From the NCBI GenBank assembly GCA_965277405.1, contig OZ255726.1, forward strand, positions 1,472,001 to 1,536,000: DNA of 64,000 nucleotides, given 5' to 3'. The notes beneath the pieces were generated by a model. It searched no databases. It was not told where the DNA came from and saw only the letters and a program-made list of their open reading frames with translations. Of this stretch, positions 6,864 through 26,438 are shown piece after piece; within the stretch, counting starts at the first letter, position 1; every line of letters begins with the position of its first letter. The DNA is from Gammaproteobacteria bacterium (GTDB lineage: Bacteria; Pseudomonadota; Gammaproteobacteria; G965277405). Both the position numbers and the translations under genes were made by a program.

Positions 6864-7916
6864 ATGCACCCATTGATGATGCAGCGCGCCATCAATACCG
6901 CGCAACAAGGGCTGTATACAACTGGCGAGAATCCTCGGGTGGGTGCGGTATTGGCAAGGGGCGACCAACTATTAGCAACAGGTTATCATGCCACGGATGG
7001 TGGCGACCATGCTGAAGTTGCATTGCTAAAAAATTTTACAACCGTGCCCGATGAAAGTACCATGTACGTCACCTTAGAGCCATGCTGTTATCGTGGCAAA
7101 ACCCCCGCGTGTACGGAGGCGTTGATACAGGCTGGGGTAACAAATATCTACGTTGCGATGCTTGACCCAAACCCGCGTGTTGCCGGCAAAGGTGTGGCGC
7201 TATTAAGGCAAGCTGGGTGCAAGGTTACTGTTACCAACACCCAACAGGCGCATGGTTTAAATATTGGGTTCATCCAACGGATGCAAACAGGAATGCCGTG
7301 GGTGCGGGTAAAAATCGCAGCTACGCTCGATGGCAATATTGCAGCAGCAGATGGTTCTAGCCAGTGGATAACTGCCCAGCCAGCGCGGGATGACGGGCAT
7401 CATTGGCGTGGACGAGCGCAAGCTATATTGACAACAGCAACAACAGTGATTGTCGATAAAGCGCGGCTTAATGCGCGGTTGGATGTGGTTGTTACCCAAC
7501 CTGACGTGTATGTGCTCGATACAAATTTTAGCTTGCCGCCAACAGCTGCAATATATCGCTGCACTTCACCACGCCAAGTCATACGGATTGGCAGCAATCC
7601 AGCCAAGGCAGAGGCTGATGATTGGTTGCTTGCAGGTGACATCGAGCTAGCAGCAATTATCCGCATGATTGGAGCGACTGGGGTGAACGAATTACACGTT
7701 GAGGCTGGCGGAACGTTGGTTGGCGCGCTGCAAGAGCAAGGGCTTATCGATGAAATTATCCTGTATCAAGCAGCTGCAATTGTTGGCGGGCAAGGAAGAA
7801 GAGCAATAGCGAATCAACGCGGGCTAACGCTGGCTGAACTCCAACATTGGCAGAGTATCGACACCCGCTGGTTTGGCAGCGATTTACGCAGGGTACTGCG
7901 CCCAGCAGCAAAATAG
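6864..7916 (+). CDS. ribD: Riboflavin deaminase/reductase
   Basis: NPRVG, HAE, YVTLEPC, TPAC, TLDG, VEAGG. Confidence 0.93.
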   Translation: MHPLMMQRAINTAQQGLYTTGENPRVGAVLARGDQLLATGYHATDGGDHAEVALLKNFTTVPDESTMYVTLEPCCYRGKTPACTEALIQAGVTNIYVAMLDPNPRVAGKGVALLRQAGCKVTVTNTQQAHGLNIGFIQRMQTGMPWVRVKIAATLDGNIAAADGSSQWITAQPARDDGHHWRGRAQAILTTATTVIVDKARLNARLDVVVTQPDVYVLDTNFSLPPTAAIYRCTSPRQVIRIGSNPAKAEADDWLLAGDIELAAIIRMIGATGVNELHVEAGGTLVGALQEQGLIDEIILYQAAAIVGGQGRRAIANQRGLTLAELQHWQSIDTRWFGSDLRRVLRPAAK

Positions 7917-8039
7917 TATTGTCTGGATATGGCAGCTATGATGAACACAACGCGGTCTAGCTATTATTTGGGACATTGTAATGGCTAATTTAAGGTAGAA
8001 ATGGGATTGGGTTCAAGTTGCTATTCTTATTTACTCTTG

Positions 8040-8172
8040 CATAGGGGAAGATGGGAAATGTATTCCTTTTTTTTGTGTAATTTGTTGCCAAGATGATTAG
8101 TAATGTTTGAGGGTAAAACATATAGTATTAACGGATATGATATTTAAGAATTTTTTTATTTCAGGTGGAAAA
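8040..8172 (+). promoter_or_regulatory. Conserved leader of lipoprotein 1
   Basis: About 130-bp block repeated before all five paralogues; TAGTAA-N17-TATAGT at 8098-8126. Confidence 0.5.
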
Positions 8173-9819
8173 ATGAACAAACAGATATTATTTTTAGCGC
8201 TAGGACTATTAGCTATAGCAGGCTGTAACAGTGATAGTAGCAGCGATAGTGAAACCAACAGTAGTAAAACCAACAGTAACGAAACTAGCAGTAGCGAAAC
8301 ATCTGCATCAGCAATCCCAGACGCACCAAGCAATGTAAGCGCAACAGCAGGTGATAGGGGAGGAGAAATAACCATTAGGTGGAATCCGGTATTTAATGCC
8401 GATTCATACAATCTATATTGGGCAACAACAGCTGGATATGGTAAATCTGCCAGCAAAATATCGCCAGTAACCAGCCCGTACACGCATACAGGGCGTTATA
8501 ATGAATCCACATACTATTACACAATAACCGCTAACAATGCCAGCGGTGAGTCTAGTACCAGTAACGAAGTTGCGGCAGGTCAAAATGATTCTAAGATTAA
8601 AACAATCTATGCAACCGACTTAGCTTTTGCCGCGCTTAAAAACGATGGGACTGTCGTTACTTGGGGGAGAGAGTATTACGGCGGCGATAGTGCAGCGGTG
8701 CAGCATCTACTGAATAACGTTACAGCAATCTATGCAGCCAGTCATGCTTTTGCCGCGCTTAAAAACGATGGGACTGTCGTTACTTGGGGTGCTAGAGGCG
8801 GCGATAGTGCAGCGGTGCAGCATCTACTGAATAACGTTACAGCAATCTATGCAGCCAGTCATGCTTTTGCCGCGCTTAAAAACGATGGGACTGTCGTTAC
8901 TTGGGGTGCTAGCGGCGGCGATAGTGCAGCGGTGCAGCATCTACTGAATAACGTTACAGCAATCTATGCAAACAGGGAAGCTTTTGCCGCGCTTAAAAAC
9001 GATGGGACTGTCGTTACTTGGGGTGATGAGGATTGGGGCGGCGATAGTTCAGCGGTGCAGCATCTACTGACTAACGTTAAAGAAATCTATTCAACTGGCG
9101 CTGCTTTTGCAGCGCTTACCAACGCCAGGACTGTCGTTACTTGGGGGATTGAGGATTACGGCGGTGATAGTGCAGCGGTGCAGCATCTACTGAATAACGT
9201 TACAGTAATCTATGCAACCTATTATGCTTTTGCCGCGCTTAAAAACGATGGGACTGTCGTTACTTGGGGGAGAGAGTATTACGGCGGCGATAGTTCAGGC
9301 GTGGAGGATCAACTGAATAACGTTACAGCAATCTATGCAAACACCCACGCTTTTGCCGCGCTTACAAACGATGGGACTGTCGTTACTTGGGGTGCTATCG
9401 GCGGCGATAGTGCAGCGGTGCAGCAGCAACTGACTAACGTTAAAGAAATCTATGCAAACATCGGGGCTTTTGCCGCGCTTACCAACGCTGGGAGTGTCGT
9501 TACTTGGGGTTCTGGTGGCGGCAGCGATAGTGCAGCGGTGCAGCAGCAACTGACTAACGTTACAGCAATCTATGCAACCGAAAGTGCTTTTGCCGCGCTT
9601 AAAAACGATGGGGGTGTCGTTACTTGGGGTAGTTATAGTGCAGGCGGCGATAGTGCAGCGGTGCAGCAGCTACTGAATAACGTTACAGCAATCTATGCAG
9701 CCAGTCATGCTTTTGCCGCGCTTAAAAACGATGGGACTGTCGTTACTTGGGGTGATCAGTATAACGGTGGCGATAGTTCAGGCGTGCAGCAGCAACTGCT
9801 CTCAGGAAGCGCTGATTAA
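8173..9819 (+). CDS. Variable repeat lipoprotein 1 (FN3 + 10 RCC1/BLIP-II-like repeats)
   Basis: MNKQILF...IAGC lipobox; FN3 (PDAPSNVSA...W...YNLYW...YYYTITA); 10 repeats of about 41 aa. Confidence 0.85.
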   Translation: MNKQILFLALGLLAIAGCNSDSSSDSETNSSKTNSNETSSSETSASAIPDAPSNVSATAGDRGGEITIRWNPVFNADSYNLYWATTAGYGKSASKISPVTSPYTHTGRYNESTYYYTITANNASGESSTSNEVAAGQNDSKIKTIYATDLAFAALKNDGTVVTWGREYYGGDSAAVQHLLNNVTAIYAASHAFAALKNDGTVVTWGARGGDSAAVQHLLNNVTAIYAASHAFAALKNDGTVVTWGASGGDSAAVQHLLNNVTAIYANREAFAALKNDGTVVTWGDEDWGGDSSAVQHLLTNVKEIYSTGAAFAALTNARTVVTWGIEDYGGDSAAVQHLLNNVTVIYATYYAFAALKNDGTVVTWGREYYGGDSSGVEDQLNNVTAIYANTHAFAALTNDGTVVTWGAIGGDSAAVQQQLTNVKEIYANIGAFAALTNAGSVVTWGSGGGSDSAAVQQQLTNVTAIYATESAFAALKNDGGVVTWGSYSAGGDSAAVQQLLNNVTAIYAASHAFAALKNDGTVVTWGDQYNGGDSSGVQQQLLSGSAD

Positions 9820-10122
9820 CTCGCTTATTGAGCGAGTTTGCTGGCAATTGCTGATGATTGCAAGGCGCAAACCGCTGAGCGCATGACCTAGCTATACGCC
9901 AAGGGGTGCAACACAGCAAGTAGCGCTGCCGCAAACCCAAAGTATATGCAACACAACGACGGGAAACAAGCGCTACTAACGTCGTTGCCGCACTTGGCAA
10001 TACCCGCACGTCCCCACCAGCACAAGCCCCACCAGTGTTAGCTGCGCACTGCGCCTTGCTATCCATCAGCCATTGAGCGTTTTTGCCGCGTTTCGCCCGT
10101 CATGGACTTAATCAGAGGTGCC
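9805..10122 (+). mobile_element. MITE with IS5-type terminal inverted repeats, copy A
   Basis: GGAAGCGCTGATTAA...TTAATCAGAGGTGCC; internal sequence shared with other copies. Confidence 0.85.
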
Positions 10123-10180
10123 ATATGAGGAAGCGGGGAAATGTATTCCTTTTTTTTGTGTAATTTGTTGCCAAGATGAT

Positions 10181-10209
10181 TTGTATTGTTTGAGGGAAAA
10201 ACATATAGT
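10181..10209 (+). promoter_or_regulatory. Putative sigma70 promoter, lipoprotein 2
   Basis: TTGTAT-N17-TATAGT conserved in paralogues 2-5. Confidence 0.55.
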
Positions 10210-10255
10210 TTTAACGGCTATGATATTTAAGAATTTTTTTATTTCGGGTGGGAAA

Positions 10256-13200
10256 ATGAACAAACAGATATTATTTTTAGCGCTAGGACTATTAGCTATA
10301 GCAGGCTGTAACAGTGAAAGTAGCAGCGATAGTGAAACCAACAGTAGTAAAACCAACAGTAGCGAAACATCTGCATTAGCAATCCCAGACGCACCAACCA
10401 ATGTAAGCGCAGCAGCAGGTGATGTGGGAGGAGAAATAACCATTAGTTGGGATAGTGTCAGTGGTGTAGCTGCATATAATTTGTATTGGTCAATAACGGC
10501 TGGATCTGGTAAATCTGCCAGCAAAATATCGCGAGTAACCAGCCCATACACGCATACAGGGCTTGCAAATACAGAGACATACTATTACACGATAACCGCA
10601 AACAATGACGGCGGTGAGTCTAGCTTGAGTAGCGAAGTTGCGGCAACAGCAACTGTATCCAATAACGACGGTGAGTCTAGCTCAAGTAGCGAAACATCTG
10701 CATCAGCAACCCCAGATGCACCAACCAATGTAAGCGCAGTAGTTGGAGTTGGAGAAATAACCATTAGTTGGAATCCAGTATATAATGCCGACACATACAA
10801 TCTATATTGGGCAACAACAGCTGGGTATGGTAAATCTGCCAGCAAAATATCGCGAGTAACCAGCCCCTACACGCATACAGGGCTTGCAAATACAGGGACA
10901 TACTATTACACAATAACCGCAAACAATGACGGCGGTGAGTCTAGCTTGAGTAGCGAGGTTGCGGCAACAGCAACTGTATCCAATAACGACGGTGAGTCTA
11001 GCTCAAGTAGCGAAACATCTGCATCAGCAACCCCAGATGCACCAACCAATGTAAGCGCAGTAGTTGGAGTTGGAGAAATAACCATTAGTTGGAATCCAGT
11101 ATATAATGCCGACACATACAATCTATATTGGGCAACAACAGCTGGGTATGGTAAATCTGCCAGCAAAATATCTGAGGTAACCAGCCCATACCTGCATACT
11201 GGGCTTGTAAATTCAGAGACATACTATTACACAATAACCGCAAACAATGACGGCGGTGAGTCAAGCTTGAGTAGCGAAGTTACGGCAGGTCAAAATTATA
11301 CTAAGATTAAAACAATCTATGCAACCGCCGATGCTTTTGCCGGACTTACCTACGCTGGGGGCGTCGTTACTTGGGGGGGTTATACTAGCGGCGGAAATAG
11401 TTCATACGTGCAGCAACAACTGATTGACGTTAAAACAATCTATGCGACCAAGTACGGGGCTTTTGCAGCGCTGACAACCGCTGGGGGCGTCGTTACTTGG
11501 GGTGATAATCGTTACGGCGGCGATAGTTCAGGCGTGCAGGGTCAACTGAATAACGTTAAAGAAATATATGCAACCCTCGGGGCTTTTGCAGCGCTGACAA
11601 CCGCTGGGGGCGTCGTTACTTGGGGGGGGATTGGTTACGGCGGCGATAGTTCAGCGGTGCAGCCGCAACTGACTGACGTTACAGCAATCTATGCAGCCAA
11701 GTATGCTTTTGCCGCGCTTAAAAACGATGGGACTGTCGTTACTTGGGGTGATGAAGATTACGGCGGCAATAGTTCAGGCGTGCAGCAGCAACTGACTAAC
11801 GTTACAGCAATCTATGCAACCGATAGGGCTTTTGCCGCGCTGACCAACGCTGGGGGCGTCGTTACTTGGGGTGATGAAGATTACGGCGGCGATAGTGCAG
11901 CGGTGCAGCAGCAACTGACTAACGTTACAGCAATCTATGCAACCGATAGGGCTTTTGCCGCGCTGACCAACGCTGCGCGCGTCGTTACTTGGGGTGATGG
12001 GTATGACGGCGGCGATAGTTCAGCCGTGCAGGATCAACTGACTGACGTTAAAGCAATCTATGCAACCGAGGGAGCTTTTGCGGCGCTGACAAATGCTGGG
12101 GGCGTCGTTACTTGGGGGAAAGTGTCTGGTTGGGGGGGGAGCACGTATGACGGCGGCGATAGTTCAGCCGTGCAGGATCAACTGACTGACGTTACAGCAA
12201 TCTATGCAACCAACTGGGCTTTTGCTGCGCTTACCAACGCTAGGAGCGTCGTTACGTGGGGGAGAGAGAATGCTGGCGGCGATAGTTCAGCCGTGCAGGG
12301 TCAACTGACTAACCTTAAAGAAATCTATTCAAACAAGTATGCTTTTGCCGCGCTGACAACCGCTGGGGGCGTCGTTACTTGGGGTCATGAGGATTACGGC
12401 GGGATTAGTGCAGACGAGCAGCAGCAACTGACTAACGTTACAGCAATCTATGCAACCGACGATGCTTTTGCCGCGCTTACCAACGCTGGGCGTGTCGTTA
12501 CTTGGGGGAGATATTTTAATGGCGGCGATAGTTCAGCGGCGCAGCAGCAACTGCTCTCAGGAAGTGCACCAACCAATGTAAGCGCAGCAGCAGGTGATAG
12601 TGGGGGAGAAATAACCATTAGTTGGAATCCGGTATTTAATGCAGATTCATACAATCTATATTGGGCAACAACAGCGGGATATGGTAAATCTGCCAACAAA
12701 ATATCGCCAGTAACCAGCCCGTACACGCATACAGGTCTTGTAAATTCAGAGACATACTATTACACAATAACCGCGAACAATGACGGCGGTGAGTCTAGCT
12801 TAAGTAGCGAAGTTGCGGCAGGTCAAAATTATACTAATATTAAAACAATCTATTCAGCAGGCTCTGCTTTTGCCGCACTTACCAACGCTGGGGGCGTCGT
12901 TACCTGGGGGAATCAGTATTCTGGCGGCAATAGTTCAGGCGTGCAGGATCAACTGACTAACGTTAAAACGGTTTATTCAAACTGGCAGGGTTTTATAGCG
13001 CTTAAAAACGATGATACTGTCGTTACTTGGGGTGATGGGTATTTGCGCGGCAATAGTTCAGGCGTGCAGGATCAACTGACTAACGTTAAAGCAGTCTATG
13101 CAACCTACAACACGATCTCCCCGGCTTATGCCGCGGTTATAAACGATGGGACTGTCGTTACTTGGGGTGATGAGGATGCAGGAGGCGATAGTTCAGACGT

Positions 13201-14095
13201 GCAGGATCAACTGACTAACGTTAAAGAAATCTATTCAACCAGAAGGGCTTTTGCTGCGCTTACAAACGCTGGGGGCGTCGTTACTTGGGGTGATGATGAT
13301 TTCGGCGCCGATAGTTCAGGCGTGCAGGGTCAACTGACTAACATTAAAGCGATCTATTCAACTAATGAACGGGCTTTTGCGGCGCTTACAAACGATGGGG
13401 GCGTCGTTACTTGGGGGAGTGATTTTTGGGGTATTAAGTGGGGCGGCGATAGTTCAGGCGTGCAGCGTCAACTGACTAACGTTAAAGCAATCTATGCAAC
13501 ATACAGGAGTTTTGCTGCGCTCACTAACGATGGGCGCGTCGTTACTTGGGGTGCTGGGGGTGCTGGCGGCGATAGTGCAGGCTTGCAGGATCAACTGACT
13601 GACGTTAAAGAAATCTATACAATCGACTATGCTTTTGCTGCGCTTACCAACGCTGGGGGCGTCGTTACTTGGCCGAGTTTCAATCCAGGCGGCGATAGTT
13701 CAGGCGTGCAGGATCAATTGACTAACGTTAAAGCAATCTATGCAAACGGCGGGGCTTTTGCTGCGCTTACCAACGCTGGGGGCGTCGTTACTTGGGGTCT
13801 TGAGGATTACGCCAGGATTAGTGCAGACGAGCAGCAGCAACTGACTGACGTTACAGCAATCTATGCAACCGACTTTGCTTTTGCCGCGCTTAAAAACGAT
13901 GGGACTGTCGTTACTTGGGGTAATGAGGATTGGGGCGGCGATAGTTCAGGCGTGCAGGATCAACTGACTAACGTTACAGCAATCTATTCAAATTACTCGG
14001 CTTTTGCCGCGCTTACCAACGCTGGGCGTGTCGTTACTTGGGGGAGTGTGGGTGGCGGCGGCGATAGTTCAGCGGTGCAGCATCTACTGCACTAA
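10256..14095 (+). CDS. Variable repeat lipoprotein 2 (3 FN3 + 10 repeats + FN3 + 10 repeats)
   Basis: Same lipobox; near-perfect 321-bp FN3 duplication; second FN3-repeat module from about 12565. Confidence 0.85.
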   Translation: MNKQILFLALGLLAIAGCNSESSSDSETNSSKTNSSETSALAIPDAPTNVSAAAGDVGGEITISWDSVSGVAAYNLYWSITAGSGKSASKISRVTSPYTHTGLANTETYYYTITANNDGGESSLSSEVAATATVSNNDGESSSSSETSASATPDAPTNVSAVVGVGEITISWNPVYNADTYNLYWATTAGYGKSASKISRVTSPYTHTGLANTGTYYYTITANNDGGESSLSSEVAATATVSNNDGESSSSSETSASATPDAPTNVSAVVGVGEITISWNPVYNADTYNLYWATTAGYGKSASKISEVTSPYLHTGLVNSETYYYTITANNDGGESSLSSEVTAGQNYTKIKTIYATADAFAGLTYAGGVVTWGGYTSGGNSSYVQQQLIDVKTIYATKYGAFAALTTAGGVVTWGDNRYGGDSSGVQGQLNNVKEIYATLGAFAALTTAGGVVTWGGIGYGGDSSAVQPQLTDVTAIYAAKYAFAALKNDGTVVTWGDEDYGGNSSGVQQQLTNVTAIYATDRAFAALTNAGGVVTWGDEDYGGDSAAVQQQLTNVTAIYATDRAFAALTNAARVVTWGDGYDGGDSSAVQDQLTDVKAIYATEGAFAALTNAGGVVTWGKVSGWGGSTYDGGDSSAVQDQLTDVTAIYATNWAFAALTNARSVVTWGRENAGGDSSAVQGQLTNLKEIYSNKYAFAALTTAGGVVTWGHEDYGGISADEQQQLTNVTAIYATDDAFAALTNAGRVVTWGRYFNGGDSSAAQQQLLSGSAPTNVSAAAGDSGGEITISWNPVFNADSYNLYWATTAGYGKSANKISPVTSPYTHTGLVNSETYYYTITANNDGGESSLSSEVAAGQNYTNIKTIYSAGSAFAALTNAGGVVTWGNQYSGGNSSGVQDQLTNVKTVYSNWQGFIALKNDDTVVTWGDGYLRGNSSGVQDQLTNVKAVYATYNTISPAYAAVINDGTVVTWGDEDAGGDSSDVQDQLTNVKEIYSTRRAFAALTNAGGVVTWGDDDFGADSSGVQGQLTNIKAIYSTNERAFAALTNDGGVVTWGSDFWGIKWGGDSSGVQRQLTNVKAIYATYRSFAALTNDGRVVTWGAGGAGGDSAGLQDQLTDVKEIYTIDYAFAALTNAGGVVTWPSFNPGGDSSGVQDQLTNVKAIYANGGAFAALTNAGGVVTWGLEDYARISADEQQQLTDVTAIYATDFAFAALKNDGTVVTWGNEDWGGDSSGVQDQLTNVTAIYSNYSAFAALTNAGRVVTWGSVGGGGDSSAVQHLLH
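10508..11172 (+). repeat. Near-perfect 321-bp tandem duplication (FN3 + linker)
   Basis: Identical antisense ORFs at 10585-10845 and 10906-11166, offset 321; boundaries approximate. Confidence 0.85.
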
Positions 14096-14355
14096 GGAAG
14101 CTCTGAAAACCGCTGGTGCAGGCGTAGCATATACGCCAACGCATGCAACTCAGCAAGTACCGCTGCCGCAAACCAGCATATATTCAACACAACAACGGGA
14201 AAAAAGCGGAACTAACGGCGTTGCAGCACTTGGCAATACCCGCGTCCCCACCAGCACAAGCCCCACCAGTGTTAGCTGCGCACTGCGCCTTGCTATCCAT
14301 CAGCCATCAGCGTTGTTGCTCCGTCTCGCCCATCATGGACTTAATCAGAGCTTCC
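14096..14355 (+). mobile_element. MITE copy B, internal deletion near left end
   Basis: CTAA then GGAAGCTCTGA...TTAATCAGAGCTTCC. Confidence 0.85.
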
Positions 14356-14412
14356 ATAGGGGAAGAAGGAAAATGTATTCTTTTTTTTTGTGTAATTTGC
14401 TGCAAAGATGAT

Positions 14413-14441
14413 TTGTATCGTTTGAGGGTAAAACATATAGT
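14413..14441 (+). promoter_or_regulatory. Putative sigma70 promoter, lipoprotein 3
   Basis: TTGTAT-N17-TATAGT. Confidence 0.55.
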
Positions 14442-14489
14442 TTTAACAGCTATGATATTTAACAATTTTTTTATTTAGGGTGGAAAAAA

Positions 14490-17120
14490 ATGAACAAACA
14501 GATATTATTTTTAACACTAGCACTATTAGCTATAGCAGGGTGTAACGCTGAAAGTAGCAGCGATAGCGAAACCAACAGTAGTAAAACCAACAGTAGTAAA
14601 ACCAACAGTAGTAAAACCAACAGTAGTAAAACCAACAGTAGTAAAACCAACAGTAACGAAACTAGCAGTAACGAAACTAGCAGTAGCGAAACATCTGCAT
14701 CAGCAATCCCAGACGCACCAAGCAATGTAAGCGCAGCAGCTGGAGTTGGAGAAATAACCATTAGTTGGAATCCGGTATTTAATGCCGATTCATACAATCT
14801 ATATTGGGCAACAACCGCTGGGTATGGTAAATCTGCCAGCAAAATATCGCGAGTAACCAGCCCGTACACGCATACAGGGCGTTATGATGAATACACATAC
14901 TATTACACAATAACCGCAAACAATGGCGACGGTGAGTCTAGCTCGAGTAACGAAGTTGCGGCAACACCAACTGTATCCAATGACGGCTTTGAGTCTAGTT
15001 CCAGTAGCGAAGTTGCAGCAGGTCAAAATGATACTAAGATTCAAACATTCTATACAACCGACGGGGCTGCTGCCGTGCTTACAAACGCTGGGGGTGTCGT
15101 TACTTGGGGTGATGAGGATTACGGTGGCGATAGTTCAGGCGTGCAGCAGCAACTGACTAACGTTACAGCCATCTATGCAACCAACGGGGCTTTTGCCGTG
15201 CTTACAAACGCTGGGCGAGTCGTTACTTGGGGTGATGAGAATAACGGCGGTGATAGTGCAGCGGTGCAGCAGCAACTGACTAACGTTACAGCCATCTATG
15301 CAACCAACGGGGCTTTTGCGGCGCTTACAAGCGCTGGGACTGTCGTTACTTGGGGTGATCAGCATAGCGGCGGCGATAGTTCAGGCGTGCAGGGTCAACT
15401 GACTAACGTTACAGCAATCTATGCAACCGATGGGGCTTTTGCCGTGCTTACAAACGCTGGGGGCGTCGTTACTTGGGGGAGTGAGGAGGACGGCGGCGAT
15501 AGTGCAGCGGTGCAGCAGCTACTGAATAACGTTACAGCAATCTATGCAACCGATAGGGCTTTTGCCGCGCTGACCAACGCTGGGGGCGTCGTTACTTGGG
15601 GTGATGAAGATTACGGCGGCGATAGTTCAGCGGTGCAGCAGCAACTGACTAACGTTACAGCAATCTATTCAACCAGCTATGCTTTTGCCGCGCTTAAAAA
15701 CGATCGGAGTGTCGTTACTTGGGGTGATGTGGATTGGGGCGGCGATAGTTCAGCTGTGCAGCAGCAACTGACTAACGTTAAAGAAATCTATGCAACTGAA
15801 TGGGGTTTTGCGGCGCGTACAACCTTTGGGGGCGTCGTTACTTGGGGTGTTGATATTTACAGTGGCGGCGATAGTTCAGCGGTACAGCAGCAACTGACTA
15901 ACGTTAAAGAAATCTATGCAACCTTATTTGCTTTTGCCGCGCTGACAAACGCTGGGAGTGTCGTTACTTGGGGCCCCAATTTTGGCGGCGGCGATATTTC
16001 AGCGGTGCAGCTGCAACTGACAAACGTTAAAGAAATCTATGCAACTGGCTTAGCTTTTGCCGCGCTGACAAACGCTGGGGGTGTCGTTACTTGGGGGAGT
16101 GAGGATCACGGCGGCGATAGTTCAGGCGTGCAGCTGCAACTGACTAACGTTAAAGAAATCTATGCAACCACCTCTGCTTTTGCCGCACTTACCAACGATG
16201 GGACTGTCGTTACTTGGGGGAGTGAGGATGAAGGCGGCGATAGTTCAGCGGTGCAGCTGCAACTGACTAACGTTAAAGAAATCTATGCAACCTCCTCTGC
16301 TTTTGCCGCGCTTACAAACGCTGGGACTGTCGTTACTTGGGGGCGTAGCGGTGGCGATAGTTCAGCGGTGCAGCAGCAACTGACTAACGTTAAAGCAATC
16401 TATGCAACCAGCTATGCTTTTGCCGCGCTTAAAAACGATCGGAGTGTCGTTACTTGGGGTGATAATCGTTACGGCGGCGATAGTTCAGGCGTGCAGCATC
16501 TACTGACTAACGTTACAGCAATCTATGCAACCGACGATGCTTTTGCCGCGCTTACCGACGCTGGGGGCGTCGTTACTTGGGGTAATAATCGTTACGGCGG
16601 CGATAGTGCAGCGGTGCAGCAGCAACTGACTGACGTTAAAGCAATCTATTCAAACGACAGTGCTTTTGCCGCGCTTACAAACGCTGGGGGCGTCGTTACT
16701 TGGGGGGATAGTTATTTAGGCGGCGATAGTTCAGGCGTGCAGCATCTACTGACTAACGTTAAAGAAATCTATTCAACTTTCTTTGCTTTTGCCGCACTTA
16801 CCAACGCTGGGGGCGTCGTTACTTGGGGGAGTGATGATTTGGGCGGCGGCGATAGTTCAGCGGTGCAGCAACAACTGACTAACGTTAAAGAAATCTATTC
16901 AACTTTCTTTGCTTTTGCCGCACTTACCAACGCTGGAGGCGTCGTTACTTGGGGGAACAATTTTAGCGGCGGCGATAGTTCAGCGGTGCAGCAACAACTG
17001 ACTAACGTTAAAGAAATCTATTCAACTTTATTTGCTTTTGCCGCACTTACCAACGCTGGGGGCGTCGTTACTTGGGGGAGTGATTGGAGAGGAGGCGATA
17101 GTTCACCGGTGCAGTTTTAA
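14490..17120 (+). CDS. Variable repeat lipoprotein 3 (FN3 + 17 repeats)
   Basis: Lipobox IAGC, (TNSSK)x5 linker, FN3, 17 counted repeats. Confidence 0.85.
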   Translation: MNKQILFLTLALLAIAGCNAESSSDSETNSSKTNSSKTNSSKTNSSKTNSSKTNSNETSSNETSSSETSASAIPDAPSNVSAAAGVGEITISWNPVFNADSYNLYWATTAGYGKSASKISRVTSPYTHTGRYDEYTYYYTITANNGDGESSSSNEVAATPTVSNDGFESSSSSEVAAGQNDTKIQTFYTTDGAAAVLTNAGGVVTWGDEDYGGDSSGVQQQLTNVTAIYATNGAFAVLTNAGRVVTWGDENNGGDSAAVQQQLTNVTAIYATNGAFAALTSAGTVVTWGDQHSGGDSSGVQGQLTNVTAIYATDGAFAVLTNAGGVVTWGSEEDGGDSAAVQQLLNNVTAIYATDRAFAALTNAGGVVTWGDEDYGGDSSAVQQQLTNVTAIYSTSYAFAALKNDRSVVTWGDVDWGGDSSAVQQQLTNVKEIYATEWGFAARTTFGGVVTWGVDIYSGGDSSAVQQQLTNVKEIYATLFAFAALTNAGSVVTWGPNFGGGDISAVQLQLTNVKEIYATGLAFAALTNAGGVVTWGSEDHGGDSSGVQLQLTNVKEIYATTSAFAALTNDGTVVTWGSEDEGGDSSAVQLQLTNVKEIYATSSAFAALTNAGTVVTWGRSGGDSSAVQQQLTNVKAIYATSYAFAALKNDRSVVTWGDNRYGGDSSGVQHLLTNVTAIYATDDAFAALTDAGGVVTWGNNRYGGDSAAVQQQLTDVKAIYSNDSAFAALTNAGGVVTWGDSYLGGDSSGVQHLLTNVKEIYSTFFAFAALTNAGGVVTWGSDDLGGGDSSAVQQQLTNVKEIYSTFFAFAALTNAGGVVTWGNNFSGGDSSAVQQQLTNVKEIYSTLFAFAALTNAGGVVTWGSDWRGGDSSPVQF
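14569..14655 (+). repeat. 15-bp in-frame tandem repeat AAACCAACAGTAGTA (TNSSK)
   Basis: Five full units plus a partial, against one plus a partial in paralogues 1, 2 and 5. Confidence 0.9.
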
Positions 17121-17129
17121 CAGCACCCA

Positions 17130-17433
17130 GGAAGCGCTGATTAAGTCGCTGAGTGAGCGAGTTAGCCAGCAATTGCTGATGACTGCAAGGCGCATTCCGC
17201 AGGCGCATGCCGTAGCATATACGCCAAGGGATGCAACACAGCAAGTAGCGCTGCCGCAAACCCAAAGTATATGCAACACAACGACGGGAAACAAGCGCTA
17301 CTAACGTCGTTGCAGCACTTGGGCAATACCCGCACGTCCCCACCAGTGTTAGCTGCGCACTGCGCCTTGCTATCCATCAGCCATCGAGCGTTTTTGCCGC
17401 GTTTCGCCCGTCATGGACTTAATCAGAGGTGCC
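17130..17433 (+). mobile_element. MITE copy C
   Basis: GGAAGCGCTGATTAA...TTAATCAGAGGTGCC. Confidence 0.85.
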
Positions 17434-17490
17434 ATATGAGGAAGCGGGGAAATGTATTCCTTTTTTTGTGTAATTTGCTGCAAAGATGAT

Positions 17491-17519
17491 TTGTATAGTT
17501 TGAGTGAAAAACATATAGT
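17491..17519 (+). promoter_or_regulatory. Putative sigma70 promoter, lipoprotein 4
   Basis: TTGTAT-N17-TATAGT. Confidence 0.5.
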
Positions 17520-17565
17520 TTTAACAGATATGATATTTAACAATATTTTTATTTCTGGTGGGAAA

Positions 17566-19003
17566 ATGAACAAACAGATATTATTTTTAACGCTCGGACT
17601 ATTAGCTATAGTAGGCTGTAACAGCGATAGTTCAGCGGTGCAGCAGCAATTGACTAACGTTACAGCAATCTATGCAACCAACGGGGCTTTTGCCGCGCTT
17701 ACAGATGGTTAGCGGCGGCGATAGTGCAGAGGTGCGGCAGCAACTGACTAACGTTAAAACAATCTATGCAAACGAGTATGCTTTTGCCGCACTTACCAAC
17801 GCTGGAGGCGTCGTTACTTGGGGGTCTGAGGAATTCGGCGGCGAAAGTTCAAGGGTGCAGCAGCAACTGACTAACGTTACAGCAATCTATGCAACCAACC
17901 ATACTTTTGCCGCGCTTAAAAACGATGGGACTGTCGTTACTTGGGGTAATGAGGGTGGGGATGGCGATAGTGCAGAGGTGCAGCAGCAACTGACTAACGT
18001 TACAGCAATCTATGCAGCCGAGTATGTTTTTGCCGCACTTACCAACGCTGGTGGCGTAGTTACTTGGGGGAGTGAGGATTTCGGCGGCGATAGTTCAATG
18101 GTGCAGCAGCAACTGACTAACGTTACAGCAATCTATGCAACCAACGGGGCTTTTGCCGCGCTTACAACCGCTGGGGGCGTCGTGACTTGGGGGAGATGGG
18201 ATGACGGCGGCAATAGTTCAGGCGTGCAGCAGCAACTGACTAACGTTAAAGAAATCTATGCAACCAAGTACGGGGCTTTTGCCGCGCTTACCAACGCTGG
18301 ACGTGTCGTTGCTTGGGGGAGTCAGGATTTCGGCGGCGATAGTGCAGAGGTGCAGCAGCAACTGACTAACGTTAAAGAAATCTATGCAAACAAGTATGCT
18401 TTTGCGGCGCTTAAAAACGATGGGACTGTCGTTACTTGGGGGAGTGAGGATTATGGCGGTAATAGTTCAGTCGTGCAGCAGCAACTGACTAACGTTACAG
18501 CAATCTATGCAACCGACTATGCTTTTGCAGCGATTACCAACGCTGGGGGCGTCGTTACTTGGGGGAGTGAGGATGCCGGCGGCGATAGTTCAGACGTGCA
18601 GCAGCAACTGACTAACGTTAAAGAAATCTATGCAACCGGCGAGGCTTTTGCGGCGATTACCAACGCTGGGGGCGTCGTTACTTGGGGTAATGATGATTAC
18701 GGCAGCGATAGTTCAGGCGTGCAGCAGCAACTGGCTAACGTTAAAGCAATCTATTCAACCGTCAGGGCTTTTGCGGCGCTTACCAATGCTGGGGGCGTCG
18801 TTACTTGGGGTAACGCTGGGGGCGTCGTTACTTGGGGTAATGATGATTACGGCAGCGATAGTGCAGCGGTGCAGCAGCAACTGGCTAACGTTACAGCAAT
18901 CTATGCAACCGACAGGGCTTTTGCCGCGCTTAAAAACGATGGGACTGTCGTTACTTGGGGTGATGTGGATTACGGCGGCGATAGTTCATATTACTTGGGG
19001 TGA
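17566..19003 (+). pseudogene. Variable repeat lipoprotein 4: FN3 deleted, frameshifted near 17705, 10 repeats plus a partial
   Basis: Signal peptide joined directly to a repeat, stop at 17712, repeats continue in another frame. Confidence 0.8.
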
Positions 19004-19030
19004 TGTGGATTACGGCGGCGATAGTTCATA
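18951..19030 (+). repeat. Perfect 40-bp tandem duplication
   Basis: TTACTTGGGGTGATGTGGATTACGGCGGCGATAGTTCATA twice. Confidence 0.9.
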
Positions 19031-19034
19031 TTGG

Positions 19035-19300
19035 TGATTGCAAGGCGCAAACCGCTGAGCGCATGACCTAGCTATACGCCAACGCATGCAACTCAGCAAG
19101 TACCGCTGCCGCAAACCAGCATATATTCAACACAACAACGGGAATAAAGCGGAACTAACGGCGTTGCAGCACTTGGCAATACCCGCACGTCCCCACCAGC
19201 ACAAGCCCCACCAGTGTTAGCTGCGCACTGCGCCTTGCTATCCATCAGCCATCAGCGTTGTTGCTCCGTCTCGCCCATCATGGACTTAATCAGAGCTTCC
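19035..19300 (+). mobile_element. MITE copy D, left end deleted
   Basis: Internal MITE sequence ending TTAATCAGAGCTTCC. Confidence 0.8.
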
Positions 19301-19357
19301 ATAGGGGAAGAAGGAAAATGTATTCCTTTTTTTTGTGTAATTTGCTGCAAAGATGAT

Positions 19358-19386
19358 TTGTATCGTTTGAGTGAAAAACATATAGT
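19358..19386 (+). promoter_or_regulatory. Putative sigma70 promoter, lipoprotein 5
   Basis: TTGTAT-N17-TATAGT. Confidence 0.5.
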
Positions 19387-19434
19387 TTTAACAGCTATGA
19401 TATTTAACAATTTTTTTATTTAGGGTGGAAAAAA

Positions 19435-21676
19435 ATGAACAAACAGATATTATTTTTAACACTAGCACTATTAGCTATAGCAGGGTGTAACGCTGAAAGT
19501 AGCAGCGATAGCGAAACCAACAGTAGTAAAACCAACAGTAGCGAAACATCTGCATCAGCAATCCCAGACGCACCAAGCAATGTAAGCGCAGCAGCAGGTG
19601 ATGGGGGAGGAGAAATAACCATTAGTTGGAATCCAGTATATAATGCCGATTCATACAATCTATATTGGGCAACAACAGCTGGATATGGTAAATCTGCCAG
19701 CAAAATATCGCGAGTAACCAGCCCGTACACGCATACAGGGCGTTATAATGAATCCACATACTATTACACGATAACCGCAAACAATGCCAGCGGTGAGTCT
19801 AGTACCAGTAACGAAGTTGCGGTAGGTAAAAATGCTACTAAGATTAAAACAATCTATGCAACCAACGGGGCTTTTGCCGCGCTTACAACCGCTGGGGCGT
19901 CGTTACTTGGGGTGATGAGGATGACGGCGGCGATAGTTCAGGCGTGCAGCAGCAACTGACTAACGTTAAAGAAATCTATGCAACCAAGGACGGGGCTTTT
20001 GCCGCGCTTACCAACGCTGGGACTGTCGTTACTTGGGGGATGAGTATTACGGTGGCGATAGTTCAGCGGTGCAGCAGCAACTGACTAACGTTGCAGCAAT
20101 CTATACAACCGACAGGGCTTTTGCCGCGCTGACAACCGCTGGGGGCGTCGTTACTTGGGGGGGCAGTTGGCCTGGCGGCGATAGTGCAGGCGTGCAGCAG
20201 CAACTGACTAACGTTACAGCAATCTATGCAACCTCCACTGCTTTTGCCGCGCTGACCAACGCTGGGGGCGTAGTTACTTGGGGGAATGAGAATTACGGCG
20301 GCGATAGTTCAGGCGTGGAGGATCAACTGAATAACGTTACAGCAATCTATGCAAACACCCACGCTTTTGCCGCGCTTACCAACGCCAGGACTGTCGTTAC
20401 TTGGGGGTATGAGGGTTGGGGTGGCGATAGTACAGGCGTGCAGCTTTTACTGACTGATGTTAAAGAAATCTATTATGCAACCGACTGGGCTTTTGCCGCG
20501 CTGACCAACGCTGGGACTGTCGTTACTTGGGGGCATGAGTATTACGGTGGCGATAGTTCAGCGGTGCAGCATTTACTGACTGACGTTAAAGAAATCTATG
20601 CAACCCGCTATGCTGTTGCCGCGCTGACCAACGCTGGGGGTGTCGTTACTTGGGGGATTGAGGATGACGGCGTCGATAGTTCAGCGGTGCAGCAGCAACT
20701 GACTGACGTTACTGCAATCTATGCAACCAACAGGGCTTTTGCCGCGATGAAAAACGATGGGACTTTCGTTACTTGGGGGTATGAGGATTGGGGCGGCGAT
20801 AGTTCAGGCGTGCAGCATTTACTGACTGACGTTACAGCAATCTATGCAACCGGCTATGCTTTTGCAGCGTTTACCAACGCTGGGGGCGTCGTTACTTGGG
20901 GTGATGAGGATTCGGGCGGCGATAGTTCAGGCGTGCAGCATCTACTGAATAACGTTCAAGCAATCTATGCAACCGACTGGGCTTTTGCCGCGCTGACCAA
21001 CGCTGGGGGCGTCGTTACTTGGGGACATGAGAATAGAGGCGGCGATAGTTCAGGCGTGCAGCATTTACTGACTAACGTTGCAGTAATCTATTCAACCAAG
21101 TGGGGGGGTGCTGCTGCGCTTACCAACGCCGGGGACGTTGTTACTTGGGGGTCATGGGATTACGGCGGCGATAGTTCAGGCGTGCAGCAGCAACTGACTA
21201 ACGTTAAAGAAATCTATGCAACCGACTGGGCTTTTGCCGCGCTGACCAACGCTGGGACTGTCGTTACTTGGGGTGGGAGCGGTGGCGATAGTACAGGCGT
21301 GCAGCAGCAACTGACTAACGTTACAGCAATCTATTCAACCGACTGGGCTTTTGCCGCGCTGACCAACGCTGGGACTGTCGTTACTTGGGGTGGGAGCGGC
21401 GGCGATAGTTCAGCGGTGCAGCAGCAACTGACTGACGTTAAAGAAATCTATTCAACCGACTGGGCTTTTGCCGCGCTGACCAACGCTGGGACTGTCGTTA
21501 CTTGGGGTGGGAGCGGCGGCGATAGTGCAGCGGTGCAGCATCAACTGACTAACGTTACAGCAATCTATTCAACCTACCGGGCTTTTGCTGCGCTTAAAAA
21601 CGATGGGACTGTCGTTACTTGGGGTGATGAGGATGACGGCGGCGATAGTGCAGCGGTGCAGCATCTACTGCACTAA
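19435..21676 (+). pseudogene. Variable repeat lipoprotein 5 (FN3 + 15 repeats), two -1 frameshifts at G runs
   Basis: G4 instead of G5 at 19894-19897 and one base missing at 20035-20040; otherwise intact. Confidence 0.75.
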
Positions 21677-21677
21677 G

Positions 21678-22706
21678 TGTCAAAACTACACACGTTGTTT
21701 ACAAAAACCAACAATTCTAGCAGCTGGTGGTAGCTTCCCTAAAGCGGAATGTGTGCGACTGAGGTTATAGTGATTAAGATATTTTGGAAGAGCTTTGTTG
21801 TGCTCATCACTTGTTTGCTATGGCTGCGAAAATGCCCATTCCTTGCTAAGCGTTTGTATCAACCTTGCTGCTTTTCCGTTGGTCTGCGGTCTGTATGGTT
21901 TGGTAAAAACGTGCTTGATTTGACAAGCATCAAGATATCGATTGACGAACTTTGATCGATATGCAGGTCCGTTGTCTGTCATCAGCCGTTGCACCGCTAT
22001 TCCCAAAGATGAAAAATGCTCCAATGCTCGGTGTATAAACCCCTGAGTCGTTGCCTTTTTCACATCAGGAAGCACCTCCACAAACGCCCATCGACTATGG
22101 TCATCTATACAAACATGGGCGCACTCAATACCATGGCCTGTATTTGCTGTTGCAGGAGCACCAAATTTATGCCCAGTGGAGTAAAACGTTGCAGTTTGTT
22201 GATGTCCAGATGCAGCATGTCGCCTGGATGCTCATATCGATGCGCTTTTTCTCTTTTTAAGGTCTTTTTTGTCAGGCACAACCGTCTCAAAATTTTGGTG
22301 ACAGTGGCGTATGCCAATTGCAAATAGCTGGCAATGCTCCGTGCATTCATTTGTGACTCTAAATAGAGTTTTTGGATGCGTTGTGCCAAGGTCTCAGCGA
22401 GCTTAGCTGGGCTTGAAATTGGCCTGCTGGAAAGATTGTACAGTGCAGATGTTCCACCTGATGTATAGCGTCTGAGCCACTTGTAAACAGTTAGTAGCGA
22501 ATAGTAGCGAAATGGCAAAATCGTTGGCTACGCGATTCACAGGGTGCTTGTCGACAAGTACCCTGTGAACCATAACTTCTCGACTATGAAACGTTGTTTT
22601 GGCACAATGATGTGGGTTGTTCATGCTGTACTCCTTTGTTTAGTAACTATATAGAGTACCAGCTGCTTAGTTAGCTGATGTGTGAACAACCTCCGTAGCA
22701 TTTACA
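21678..22706 (-). mobile_element. IS481-family element with frameshifted transposase
   Basis: TGT...ACA ends with 26-bp imperfect inverted repeat; fragments RYEH..PGDMLHLDINKL, RLMTDNGPAY, TKPYRPQTNGKA. Confidence 0.9.
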
Positions 22707-22860
22707 ACTAGGAACTTACGAATCCACCTTAGTCTGTGGCTATCTCAAAAATAGCTTCATCTATTTCAATGGTGTCCCCAACCTCTTTCAGCCATTTTGT
22801 GAGAGTAGCTTCGGCAACACTCTCACCCATTTGCGGTAATTTTAGCTCAAATTTTGACAT
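22707..22860 (-). pseudogene. 5' fragment (lipoyl domain) of a 2-oxoacid dehydrogenase E2
   Basis: Hand translation MSKFELKLPQMGESVAEATLTKWLKEVGDTIEIDEAIFEIATD, then frameshifted KVDS*VPS, cut at the IS481 end. Confidence 0.8.
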
Positions 22861-22956
22861 ATTGTTATTTTATATGCTATTTATGGATAGTATTTTACAA
22901 AATTACTAAAAAAGAGTGTTTTATTAAATTAATAAAACATTTAATCTATTCGGGTT

Positions 22957-25900
22957 TTAACTAAATAATTCTTCAATACTTTCTTTAGATAATGATTTTA
23001 CAAAACTTTCTTCTGTTTGTATAATATCATCAGATAGTTGTTTTTTATTGGACTGATGCTGAACAATCTTTTCTTCTATAGTTCCTTTACATATCATTTT
23101 ATACGCCATTACATGTTTGCTCTGACCTATTCTATAACACCTATCTATTGCTTGAGCCTCTACTGCGGGGTTCCACCAAGGATCTACCAAATACACATAG
23201 TCAGCCGCAGTGAGGTTAAGCCCAGTTCCTCCTGCTTTAAGACTGATTAGAAATACTCTTATGTTTTCATCTTCCTGAAAGCTCTCTACTCTTTCTTGTC
23301 TGTTTTTAGTTTTACCATCTAAATATTCATACTTAATATTTTCCTTGTCTAGTTCATCTTTAATCAACCTTAGCATTTTTACAAATTGAGAAAAGATCAA
23401 TATTTTATGATTTCCTGTTTTTTCTGTAATATGCTGTATGAGTTCTTTTATTTTAATCGATTCCCCAGTATATTTTTCATCTTCCTTAAGCAGTTGTGGA
23501 GAGTCGCATATTTGTCGCAATTTTGTTAATCCTTCTAGCACATACATTTTTGATTTTCCCAATCCTGTCTCATCTATTTTATTCAGTAAATAATCACGGT
23601 ATTTATTTCTATAGGCATCATATAATTGTTGCTGTTCTGTATCCATAGTACAAAATAGTATCTGCTCTGTTTTTTCTGGCAATTCTGTTGCCACCTGTTC
23701 TTTAGTTCGTCTTAATAAAAAAGGATTGATCAGTTCTTTTAGTTCTTTTGCAACCTCTGTATCTCTATTTTTATCTATTGGAGTTGAAAATTCTTTTTTA
23801 AAATTCGCCATACTTCCTAAAAGACCGGGGTTTACAAAGGTCATTTGCGAATATAGATCAAACGTATTGTTTTCTATAGGGGTACCTGTAAGCACTATTT
23901 TATTTTTTGATTGTAATAATCGCACTGCTTTAAACCGTTGTGAGTTTGGGTTTTTTATGGCTTGTGATTCATCTAGAACTATATAATCAAAATTGTATTC
24001 TTTTAGATAATCTATATCTCTCATTACAATACCATAAGTAGTTAATACCAAATCGGTTTTCTTAAATATATCTGTATCTTTTTTCCTATCACCTCCTATA
24101 AGGGCAAATATTTTAAGTGTTGGGCAGAATTTTTTAATTTCTTCCTGCCAATTAAAGATTAAGGATGTTGGTACCACTATTAAATGTGCATTAGTGGTCT
24201 TTTTTTTATCTTTTAGATATTTAAAAAAAGTGATGATCTGTAATGTTTTCCCCAATCCCATATCATCTGCCAAACAGCCTCCAAAATTATACTCATCTAA
24301 AAAGTTAAGCCAATTAAGACCTTCTTTTTGGTAATCTCTCAATTTTGCCTTTACCCTACGGGGCTCCGTTATTTTATCAATTTCTTTAAAAGACTGCAAT
24401 TTCTTTTTCATCTCTCTATGATTTTTTATCATATCAGAGTCCTGATCTAGTTCATCATATAAACTGTCTATTGCCGAAAGCTGGTATTTAGAAATTGTTA
24501 TGCTATCTTTTTTTACGTCTCCTGTTCTGAACAGATGTTTGTATTTTTCTATCCACTCTTTAGGGAGTATTCCTATTGTTCCATCTTTTAATTCTATATA
24601 GTTGCTTTTATTAACAATAGATTTACTGACGTCTTTTAGGCTTACGGTTAGGTCTCCAAAAGCAATTTGTATATTAACATCGAACCAATCTGTTTCAGAA
24701 TTTACATTTACAGATATATTTGCCTTATTTCTATTGTATTTTATATTGGATAGGGTATCAAAACCAAATATTTCTATATCATTTTCTTTTAATACTTCAA
24801 AAGCATCTATAAACCAAGCTCCTTTAATAAAATCTTCCATAAAAAGATAGAAAAATGATTGATCTTGATTATAGAAATCCTGGTGCAGTGTTCTTATTGT
24901 ATCAAGAAACTCTTTTTCGTAATCAGCATCCCTTTTTACCCTAAATAATGTGCCATTTTTTATTTCTTCTGGCATTTTTTTACTTAAAACCCCTATATGT
25001 TGTTCGTTGTATTCCAAAACAGGTTTAAACAGTATAAAACCGTCGTGTTCTGACAAATACAATTGCTTTTTAAACTCGTTTATCTCGGGTGTTTTAGTTT
25101 TGTATTTTAGGTGTGTTGTTTCTATTTCATATTTTTCGCAAAGCGGTTTGATAAATTTTGAATAATAGGCATCAAAGCCCTCTTTTGGGATTCGTATTTC
25201 GGGGTTTGAATCAAAAAATATTAACGTCTTAGCATAATTGATAGATTTGTTAAGGTAATATGTATCCTTATCTTCCACAAAAAGAAAATTCCCGCCAATT
25301 TCCTTTTTGGACAATAAGCTCTTTTTTTCGTTTATAGTTATATAAGCTTTTAAAATATGGTGATGGACTTCTTCTACAATTTTAAATGAAAGTTCTGTGC
25401 TTTTTATAGATAGCTTAATCGGTGTTAATTGCCTTTTTGTAATTTGTTTACTATGCTCATAATAATTCATTTTATATATGAACTGGTTTTCTAATTTTGG
25501 CATTAGTTCTTTTAGTACTGTATGCTCATATTTTTCTATAACGAATTCATCCTCATTCCTTAAATCATAAAGTGAATGTTCGGATAATTTTAATGCACAG
25601 CTTAAAAGATTTATTTCTTCTTCTTTTAGGGAATATTTTTTTAGTATTAGGTCTTCTGCTTCTATTTCTTCTATTTTAGAAATCAAAGCTGCTCCATCCT
25701 TGTTTAAGTTTCCTCTTAAGGGGATTAAGATTACAGGGGGCGAATGATTTTGATATTCATGAAATATAAATCCTATGGCAATTCCTTTTGCTTTGGTTTT
25801 CTTTTCTAGCACAGGAGCGTATGGCAATTCATATTTTTTTACTTCTTCATCAGATACCAAAGTGTTAAGCATTATATTAAGCCCATCCTTTTCGTCTAAC

Positions 25901-26361: not shown

Positions 26362-26438
26362 CTGTTTATAATTAATCACCTTGATGTTTAACCTATACAA
26401 CAATCAGTTATACCATAATACTTTTAGATTGCTTATGG

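Follow-up and report, generated by a model that had tools for sequence, protein, structure and literature searches.

Introduction

Blades of three antiparallel strands form the propeller of BLIP-II from Streptomyces exfoliatus (PDB 1JTD, 3QHY, 3QI0, 9T9P) (PMC6121496), the best solved match to the repeat proteins described here. The latter are encoded by five co-directional lipoprotein genes (A–E, + strand, positions 8170–21676, as determined from open reading frames and their translations) in a 64,000-nucleotide stretch of the genome of a marine-type gammaproteobacterium (contig OZ255726.1, positions 1,472,001–1,536,000; hereafter, the window). Like BLIP-II, the array proteins have blades of ~40 residues, each with three strands and a helix, and the contact residues of BLIP-II occur at positions that are variable in the array proteins. 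BLIP-II, however, has seven blades as compared with ten repeats per array module, and it is a free secreted protein, whereas the array proteins have a lipid anchor, a tether, and FN3 stalks; sequence identity is 26–30%. Each array repeat combines a scaffold with two short variable loops, V1 and V2. We favor, with moderate confidence, the explanation that A–E arose by local expansion of a family of stalked binding proteins with lipid anchors, the loops of which have been diversified under selection.

Several other described systems bear resemblance to this locus. Highly repetitive RCC1/BLIP-II propellers, mostly bacterial, account for 10% of the set of Pereira and Lupas (2022; PMC9218822). The array proteins are likewise of the bacterial RCC1/BLIP-II type, their median blade-to-blade identity (0.61–0.71 per gene, 0.66 over 50 canonical units) exceeds the 60% line applied to that group, and their blade numbers depart from the lineage norm (17, 15, and 11 vs. 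10). The passages of that paper on amplification do not mention two hypervariable loops, ten-bladed modules, lipoproteins, or gene arrays. The WD40 repeats of the fungal NOD-like receptors het-e, het-d, and hnwd, which show high internal conservation, as presented in parts of three reports (PMC1805685, PMC4986451, PMC2873952), have a near-constant scaffold with a few hypervariable positions on the binding face, exchange repeats among paralogues, and change in repeat number. These receptors are nevertheless cytosolic WD40 proteins with an NTPase switch and a cell-death output, whereas the array genes encode exported-type lipoproteins that have no signaling domain.

The closest likeness in overall build is found in proteins annotated as "Ig-like domain-containing" in Aeromonas (P0004, P0039) and as "RCC1 domain-containing protein" in Photobacterium lipolyticum (P0007). 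These have a lipoprotein-type signal, an Ig-like or other stalk, and about ten repeats with variable V1 and V2. They are 50–60% identical to the array proteins, their stalks are bacterial Ig domains rather than FN3, and repeat genes of this family stand singly in most of the loci examined (73 of 78). The variable proteins of diversity-generating retroelements similarly have variation focused on a ligand-binding surface and variable codons that are mostly NNY. Those proteins, however, have a different fold and a single variable region, and they depend on a reverse transcriptase and a template repeat, neither of which was found here, whereas the array has many short variable sites. Lastly, cassette-based antigenic variation of the pilE/pilS or vlsE kind involves one expression site and promoterless silent cassettes. 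The five array genes differ from this layout in that each has its own leader, start codon, and signal peptide.

Results

Constant scaffold and variable loops

All five proteins start with the same lipoprotein signal peptide, MNKQILFL(A/T)L(G/A)LLAI(A/V)GC, which is also present in a separate paralogue, F. The lipobox IAGC is directly legible in the translations and fits the lipobox motif [LVI][ASTVI][GAS]C. A low-complexity tether rich in Ser, Thr, and Asn follows the signal peptide in the array proteins. FN3 domains are present as well, with the Pfam fn3 model scoring above its cut-off in gene B only, over four stretches (75 bits vs. a cut-off of 25). An initial annotation of this DNA had described a tandem array of lipid-anchored repeat proteins on FN3 stalks, and this anatomy is borne out. 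One correction is that two of the five genes, D and E, are broken.

Scanning 8040–21676 for the VVTWG-type anchor of the repeat returned 73 anchors. As one of these stems from a 27-nt internal duplication, the array has 72 repeats of 41 residues plus one truncated repeat: 10 in A, 10 + 10 in B, 17 in C, 10 in D (plus the truncated first one), and 15 in E, in agreement with the approximate count made earlier. Tandem Repeats Finder gave a period of 123 nt (scores 975–2496). We parsed 71 units. The duplication artifact at 18824 and two units interrupted by a stop codon in frame were set aside, leaving 68 for statistics. V1 is two residues long in 62 of the 68 units, as had been claimed, three residues in five, and six in one. 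V2 is four residues long in 55 units and 2, 3, 5, 8, 11, or 13 in the rest.

Variation in the aligned repeats is concentrated in the two loops. Per-position entropy is 3.3–3.4 bits in V1 and 2.4–3.2 bits in V2, and is <1.4 bits at 31 of 35 scaffold positions. Tyr, Trp, and Phe make up 23% of V1 and 20% of V2 residues as compared with 9% in the scaffold, with aromatics accounting for 35% of residues at V1 position 2 and 49% at V2 position 4. Among 70 units there are 47 distinct V1 loops, 63 distinct V2 loops, and 67 distinct V1+V2 pairs. The scaffold differs between units by a mean of 15 in 105 nt, corresponding to ~86% DNA identity; the framework is therefore less uniform than the near-identity at the DNA level initially reported.

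The codons of the loops are mostly NNT or NNC, and the third base at V2 position 3 is T in 52 of 55 cases, a superficial likeness to the outcome of adenine mutagenesis at AAY codons. It is nonetheless extremely improbable that the loops are hypermutated by a diversity-generating retroelement or by another mutator of that sort. The reverse transcriptase model RVT_1 (PF00078) had no match in this 98% complete genome, while the same search was positive in 3 of 14 control genomes; a retroelement mutator is therefore excluded as far as this search can show. In addition, no template-repeat/variable-repeat pair was found, and the variation is spread over ~140 separate short sites.

Predicted fold and binding face

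The Pfam model RCC1_2 (PF13540) matched all five repeat products at 73–138 bits (cut-off 22). The RCC1-like model PF25390 scored above its cut-off of 150 bits for B (181) and C (176), and below it for A, D, and E. AlphaFold2, given the ten gene A repeats and an alignment of 34 sequences, yielded a propeller with a predicted local distance difference test (pLDDT) score of 92.9 and a predicted template modeling (pTM) score of 0.89. As assigned by DSSP, this model consists of ten units, each with three strands and a short helix. BLIP-II was the best match among solved structures (Foldseek E 2e-17, 28–30% identity; VIA Z 17.7; phmmer E 8e-11), supporting the RCC1/BLIP-II assignment of the initial annotation. 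Further matches were UVR8, the RLD of HERC2, and RCC1 (VIA Z 13–14.7), with Foldseek E values of 2e-17 to 1e-11 across the set including BLIP-II. Alignments by VIA over the whole length of the model were obtained with the nine- and ten-bladed propellers of eIF3b, eIF2A, sortilin, and SorLA; those with sortilin and SorLA covered 314–327 residues (root mean square deviation 5.0–5.1, Z 7.7). The predicted ten repeats fit a closed ten-bladed ring, and no ten-bladed RCC1/BLIP-II member was present among the solved-structure matches from Foldseek and VIA.

V1 is the turn between strands 1 and 2 in the model, and V2 directly follows strand 3. Because of the strand order of the three-stranded meander, the two loops are predicted to lie on the same face of the propeller. 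To compare this face with a characterized one, we used the 22 BLIP-II residues given as contacting beta-lactamases in PMC10817188. The numbering offset of 39 was fixed on 17 positions, with residue types agreeing at 17 of 17. One residue printed there as "Tyr19" was taken to be Tyr191, as a Tyr occupies that position in the alignment. In the phmmer alignment, 9 of these 22 contacts fall at V1 and 11 fall in or directly after V2. One of the remaining two is four residues beyond V2, and the other is outside the aligned stretch. Trp 53, 152, and 269 of BLIP-II, which we take to be hot spots, align either with V1 position 2 or with the end of V2. With 20 of the 22 contacts in or beside V1 or V2, the loops are homologues of a proven protein-binding surface, and the earlier expectation that they share one face agrees with both the predicted structure and these contact positions.

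Loop substitutions and scaffold recombination

Proportions of synonymous (pS) and nonsynonymous (pN) differences were counted over all unit pairs by the method of Nei and Gojobori. The scaffold had a pS of 0.177 and a pN of 0.131, V1 had 0.50 and 0.65, and V2 had 0.35 and 0.51, respectively. Saturation and non-independence were lessened by choosing 25 disjoint pairs of units with the nearest scaffolds. For these pairs, scaffold pS was 0.109, loop pN 0.547, and loop pS 0.349. Loop pN was thus 5.0 times scaffold pS (bootstrap 4.1–6.3), and loop pN/pS was 1.57 (bootstrap 1.30–1.99), which is in accord with the excess of nonsynonymous change in V1 and V2 that had been anticipated. Even where units differ at only 3–5 of 105 scaffold bases, 75% of V1 and 70% of V2 residues already differ. 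Third codon positions are also more diverse in the loops than in the scaffold, so we do not base a claim of selection on diversity by codon position.

The scaffold is a recombination mosaic. By the four-gamete test, all four combinations occur in 366 of 435 pairs of informative scaffold sites, and in 38 of the 69 pairs ≤10 nt apart. No exact tract common to two genes exceeds 116 nt, and some such tracts include a loop; A and E, for example, have an 88-nt tract in common. Scaffold differences average 13.5 of 105 nt within genes and 15.2 between genes, a gap reached in 0 of 2000 permutations. As the two values are almost equal, the blades are not the product of a single fresh amplification.

Two readings fit these observations: fast change of the loops under selection, or retention of old loop diversity while short-tract recombination homogenizes the scaffold. 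With either one, loop diversity is maintained against homogenization.

The family beyond this locus

Homologues are abundant. We found 3225 matches among 8000 candidates scored from one library, and 27,320 cluster representatives at E ≤0.001 (3629 at ≤1e-30) in a second. At least 584 stretches were confirmed in species-representative genomes from many phyla. Dinoflagellate proteomes are rich in the repeat family, too. Among the best homologues of the ten-repeat module, many (50–57% identity; P0002, P0006, P0008, and others) are annotated in Symbiodinium and other dinoflagellates, so the module is common to marine bacteria and these eukaryotes. Neither large library contained a protein of >62% identity. 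The propeller was absent with this query from 40 class-level relatives, two of which matched the FN3 part only, and 50,697 phage records gave three weak matches of 26% identity. Literature searches, the results of one of which were dominated by algal strain names, returned no paper on the bacterial function of this propeller family.

Ten is the commonest array length among homologues (38 of 142 arrays). Entropy within single proteins is above that of the scaffold for V1 in 111 of 111 homologues and for V2 in 110 of 111, and the pattern of fixed scaffold and variable loops is therefore a property of the family. The same cannot be said of the arrangement in a gene array: 73 of 78 loci have one repeat gene and five have two or more, with three in one case. 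The initial annotation had offered the arrayed, loop-diversified organization as a possible novelty. Loop diversification is family-wide, and it is the five-gene array that is uncommon. What is unusual here is the youth of the repeats at the DNA level together with the array of five genes, making the locus an unusually expanded, young member of a large and widespread family rather than a new mechanism.

At 39 other loci, the medians were 0.57 for scaffold pS, 0.62 for loop pN, and 0.67 for loop pS. Five of these loci are young (scaffold pS <0.3) and have a loop pN/pS of 1.07–2.06 (L018, L023, L030, L041, and L048). They belong to a metagenome-assembled genome (MAG) of Prochloron, Psychromonas ossibalaenae, two cyanobacterial MAGs, and a Chthoniobacter MAG.

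These comparisons bear on the possibility of relaxed constraint, by which the scaffold would be under purifying selection, the loops would drift freely with no selection for diversity, and the paralogues would be structural or adhesive proteins with redundant roles. The recurrence of the loop pattern in virtually all homologues agrees with this, as do the median values elsewhere, which are those expected of old, saturated, and unconstrained loops, and the decay of two array genes. At the present locus, however, the scaffold is young (pS 0.11–0.18) and yet loop pN is 0.51–0.65, and the loop pN/pS of the nearest pairs is above the neutral value of 1. Furthermore, loop lengths are conserved, and aromatics are enriched at V1 position 2 and V2 position 4, the positions equivalent to the BLIP-II hot spots. 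On balance, we regard relaxed constraint as unlikely.

Proposed explanation

We propose that the array proteins are binding proteins made of a lipoprotein signal, a Ser/Thr/Asn tether, FN3 spacers, and one or more propellers of ten 41-residue BLIP-II-type blades. Since each of ten blades would put both V1 and V2 on one face, a single propeller would display a ring of 20 variable loops, rich in aromatic and acidic residues, at the positions by which BLIP-II grips beta-lactamases. Selection for new specificities would favor point substitutions in the loops. Blades would recombine over short tracts, which would keep the scaffold alike and move loops around, unequal crossing-over would alter the number of blades, and segmental duplication of a unit consisting of leader, gene, and miniature inverted-repeat transposable element (MITE) would expand the array.

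A number of observations weigh against this explanation. V2 has a clear consensus, [D/S/N]-E-D-[Y/W/F], and is therefore variable but not random. Nei–Gojobori counts are rough near saturation. Silent differences are raised in the loops as well (pS 0.35 vs. 0.11 in the scaffold), so retention of old loop diversity contributes, and part of the contrast between loops and scaffold may come from old loops kept during scaffold homogenization rather than from fast substitution. The blades at 34 of the 39 other loci are old at silent sites and have a loop pN close to loop pS, which is what a simple absence of constraint would give. The loops of paralogue F are far less diverse, with 14 distinct V2 among 29 units. 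Closure of the predicted ring comes from structural alignments, two of the five array genes are broken, and lipoproteins of Gram-negative bacteria by default face the periplasm.

Organization of the array genes

The features of the array are given in Table 1.

Table 1. Coordinates of the array genes, their propellers, and associated elements within the window.
Feature	Position	Strand	Description	Basis
Leader of gene A	8046–8169	+	conserved leader/promoter region upstream of gene A, ~125 bp	spacer alignment
Gene A	8170–9819	+	intact; signal, tether, one FN3, 10 repeats (8575–9816) forming one predicted propeller	
MITE copy 1	9805–10122	+		blastn, terminal inverted repeats
Gene B	10256–14095	+	intact; signal, three FN3, propeller B1, one FN3, propeller B2	
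Propeller B1	11285–12568	+	10 repeats	
Propeller B2	12818–14092	+	10 repeats	
MITE copy 2	14096–14355	+	internal deletion; starts directly after gene B stop	
Gene C	14490–17120	+	open frame; signal, tether, one FN3-like domain, 17 repeats	
MITE copy 3	17130–17432	+		
Gene D	17566–19040	+	broken; signal, 10 repeats plus one truncated (first), no FN3	
MITE copy 4	19033–19300	+	5' end truncated	
Gene E	19435–21676	+	frame broken twice; signal, FN3 domain, 15 repeats	

The spacers between the genes are composed of a copy of a ~300-bp MITE followed by the conserved leader. MITE copies adjoin genes A–D, and none follows gene E; genome-wide, blastn found 264 matches to the spacer. Genes A and C take their stop and the four codons before it (GSAD in A) from the left terminal inverted repeat of the MITE, GGAAGC(G/T)CTGATTAAGTC. 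In gene B the left end of the MITE abuts the stop codon, and in gene D it is further off from the broken end. The leader of ~125 bp precedes A–E, paralogue F, and a remnant, G, and a blastn search with spacer positions 310–436 detected only these seven sites in the genome. From this arrangement of MITE and leader it follows that the duplicated unit is leader, gene, and MITE. The predicted RNA fold of the leader was not significant (z 0.51), no inverted repeats were found in it, and its + strand had no match to a consensus sigma-70 promoter.

Judged by sequence, three array genes (A, B, and C) and F, which lies apart from them, appear to be functional; D, E, and G are decaying. The stop of gene C lies nine codons ahead of the usual end. 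The signal peptide of gene D is fused directly to a repeat by way of an 11-nt microhomology, and the FN3 domain has been lost as a result. A 29-nt deletion in the first repeat of this gene leads to a TAG stop near 17700. Gene D also has two duplications, one of 27 nt at 18788 and a tandem one of 40 nt at 18951–19032, the latter disrupting the 3' end. Gene E appears to have suffered two single-base losses within ~100 nt, one in a G run near 19937 and the other on the first V2 base near 20034.

Gene B may derive from two single-propeller genes that were joined when the MITE, leader, and signal peptide between them were deleted. The linker between its two propellers (12554–12575) has the first bases of the MITE end, directly followed by the start of FN3; this shared stretch is short and could be due to chance. 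The tether of gene C contains a perfect 15-nt tandem repeat (14569–14655, 5.8 copies) that encodes KTNSS, and A, B, and E have 2.6–3.6 less perfect copies of it, so that tether length varies among paralogues. Five of the 50 runs of ≥7 G or C bases in the genome are in the array (11373, 11622, 12132, 20157, and 21102), including two G8 runs in gene B. The G runs of the array form where the anchor TGGGGG meets a V2 loop starting with G.

Paralogue F (genome positions 544,194–550,706) is a lipoprotein of 2171 residues that comprises three ten-repeat modules (30 repeats) and seven FN3 domains. At its C terminus it has an F5/8 type C (discoidin) domain (E 8e-12), a domain typical of extracellular binding proteins. 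Up to five FN3 spacers stand in a row. G, a decayed seventh family member (genome positions ~787500–790300), has a different N-terminal domain.

Genomic surroundings and assembly support

The genome in which the array resides forms one contig of 2.17 Mb (44.8% G+C). The array is bordered on the left by ribD (6864–7916) and on the right by a decayed insertion-sequence transposase (21818–22518, minus strand), the integrase-core frame of which is in several fragments. The flanking genes are housekeeping genes. Further to the right, a gene for an SNF2-family helicase of 1148 residues (22957–26403, minus strand) lies in a stretch of 30–36% G+C as compared with ~45% for the genome, and may be foreign DNA. 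Scans with NCBIfam and PADLOC produced only spurious short matches far under the cut-offs (one in the case of PADLOC). No Rfam match was obtained in 7800–22900, and there are no tRNA genes in positions 1–30000 of the window.

Neither a recombinase or invertase gene nor toxin or secretion genes adjoin the array, and no dedicated switching machinery was found for its genes among the neighboring genes or in the reverse transcriptase search of the genome. This is relevant to programmed antigenic or phase variation, in which D and E would be donor cassettes for gene conversion and homopolymer tracts would serve as switches. Consistent with such variation are the mosaic scaffold, the short loop-bearing patches common to different genes, the share of the genome's G/C runs that lies in the array, and the nature of both frameshifts in gene E as single-base losses. 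The presence of a separate leader and start codon in front of every gene, D and E included, means however that this is not one expression site with silent cassettes, and the exact tracts shared between genes are short. Runs of 7–8 bases, such as the G runs seen here, are short for slippage. Contigs from three sequencing runs also have no clear alternative forms, although they are too fragmented to decide the matter. We therefore consider programmed variation quite unlikely.

The lack of adjoining toxin and secretion genes also argues against a periplasmic repertoire of inhibitors or immunity proteins, whose propellers would block incoming hydrolases or competitor toxins from the inner face of the outer membrane. 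Such a role would be in keeping with the closest solved relative being an enzyme inhibitor that uses the same loops, and with lipoproteins for which no route to the surface has been shown. Gene arrays with decaying members, moreover, resemble orphan immunity gene arrays. However, the long tethers, the consecutive FN3 domains, and the discoidin domain of F suggest outward reach, and the single PADLOC match was spurious. A periplasmic inhibitor repertoire is accordingly very unlikely in our estimation.

Short-read contigs from three runs of one study were compared with the window. These split the array into pieces of 150–320 bp, copies of which map onto one another, and none of the listed pieces spans the array. 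Tandem repeats of 123 nt are hard to assemble, and the array might in principle have been mis-joined or inflated in assembly. This seems barely credible in view of several loop-bearing contigs that are identical to the window in two runs (11233–11484, 12182–12370, 13471–13669, and 18683–18862) and a 16-kb flanking contig that is identical up to 7951. The near uniqueness of the V1+V2 pairs would also have provided the assembler with unique anchors. At one of the frameshift sites of gene E, an extra G at 20034 in one contig was accompanied by a G>C change at 20039; this contig fits the sister blade at 20519 and was not counted. The exact array contigs (11233–18862) had ~55–60% (run X1) and 45–50% (run X2) of the word depth of the flanking contig (6800–7951). 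This lower depth could stem from mixed strains, from coverage bias, or from how depth is reported.

Discussion

The array belongs to the few loci of this family at which selection on the loops can be gauged, its blades being sufficiently young at silent sites, and the match of its loops to the contacts of BLIP-II provides a concrete picture of the binding face. A bolder possibility, which we hold to be unlikely at present, is that the locus is a working combinatorial repertoire of surface receptors, with 20 selectable loops per propeller, intact and decayed paralogues that trade short patches by gene conversion, and cells that differ within one population in what they bind. If this were true, it would point to an arms race with phages, hosts, or competitors and would constitute a bacterial counterpart of repeat-based variable receptors; it would also offer a natural ten-bladed binder scaffold of a kind for which there is no solved structure. 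Under the explanation we favor, a locally expanded family of stalked binding proteins, the locus illustrates well a known route by which binding surfaces evolve. Should the propellers bind diverse ligands, binders could be engineered on this natural module, and it would serve to indicate biotic interaction in marine bacteria that have not been cultured.

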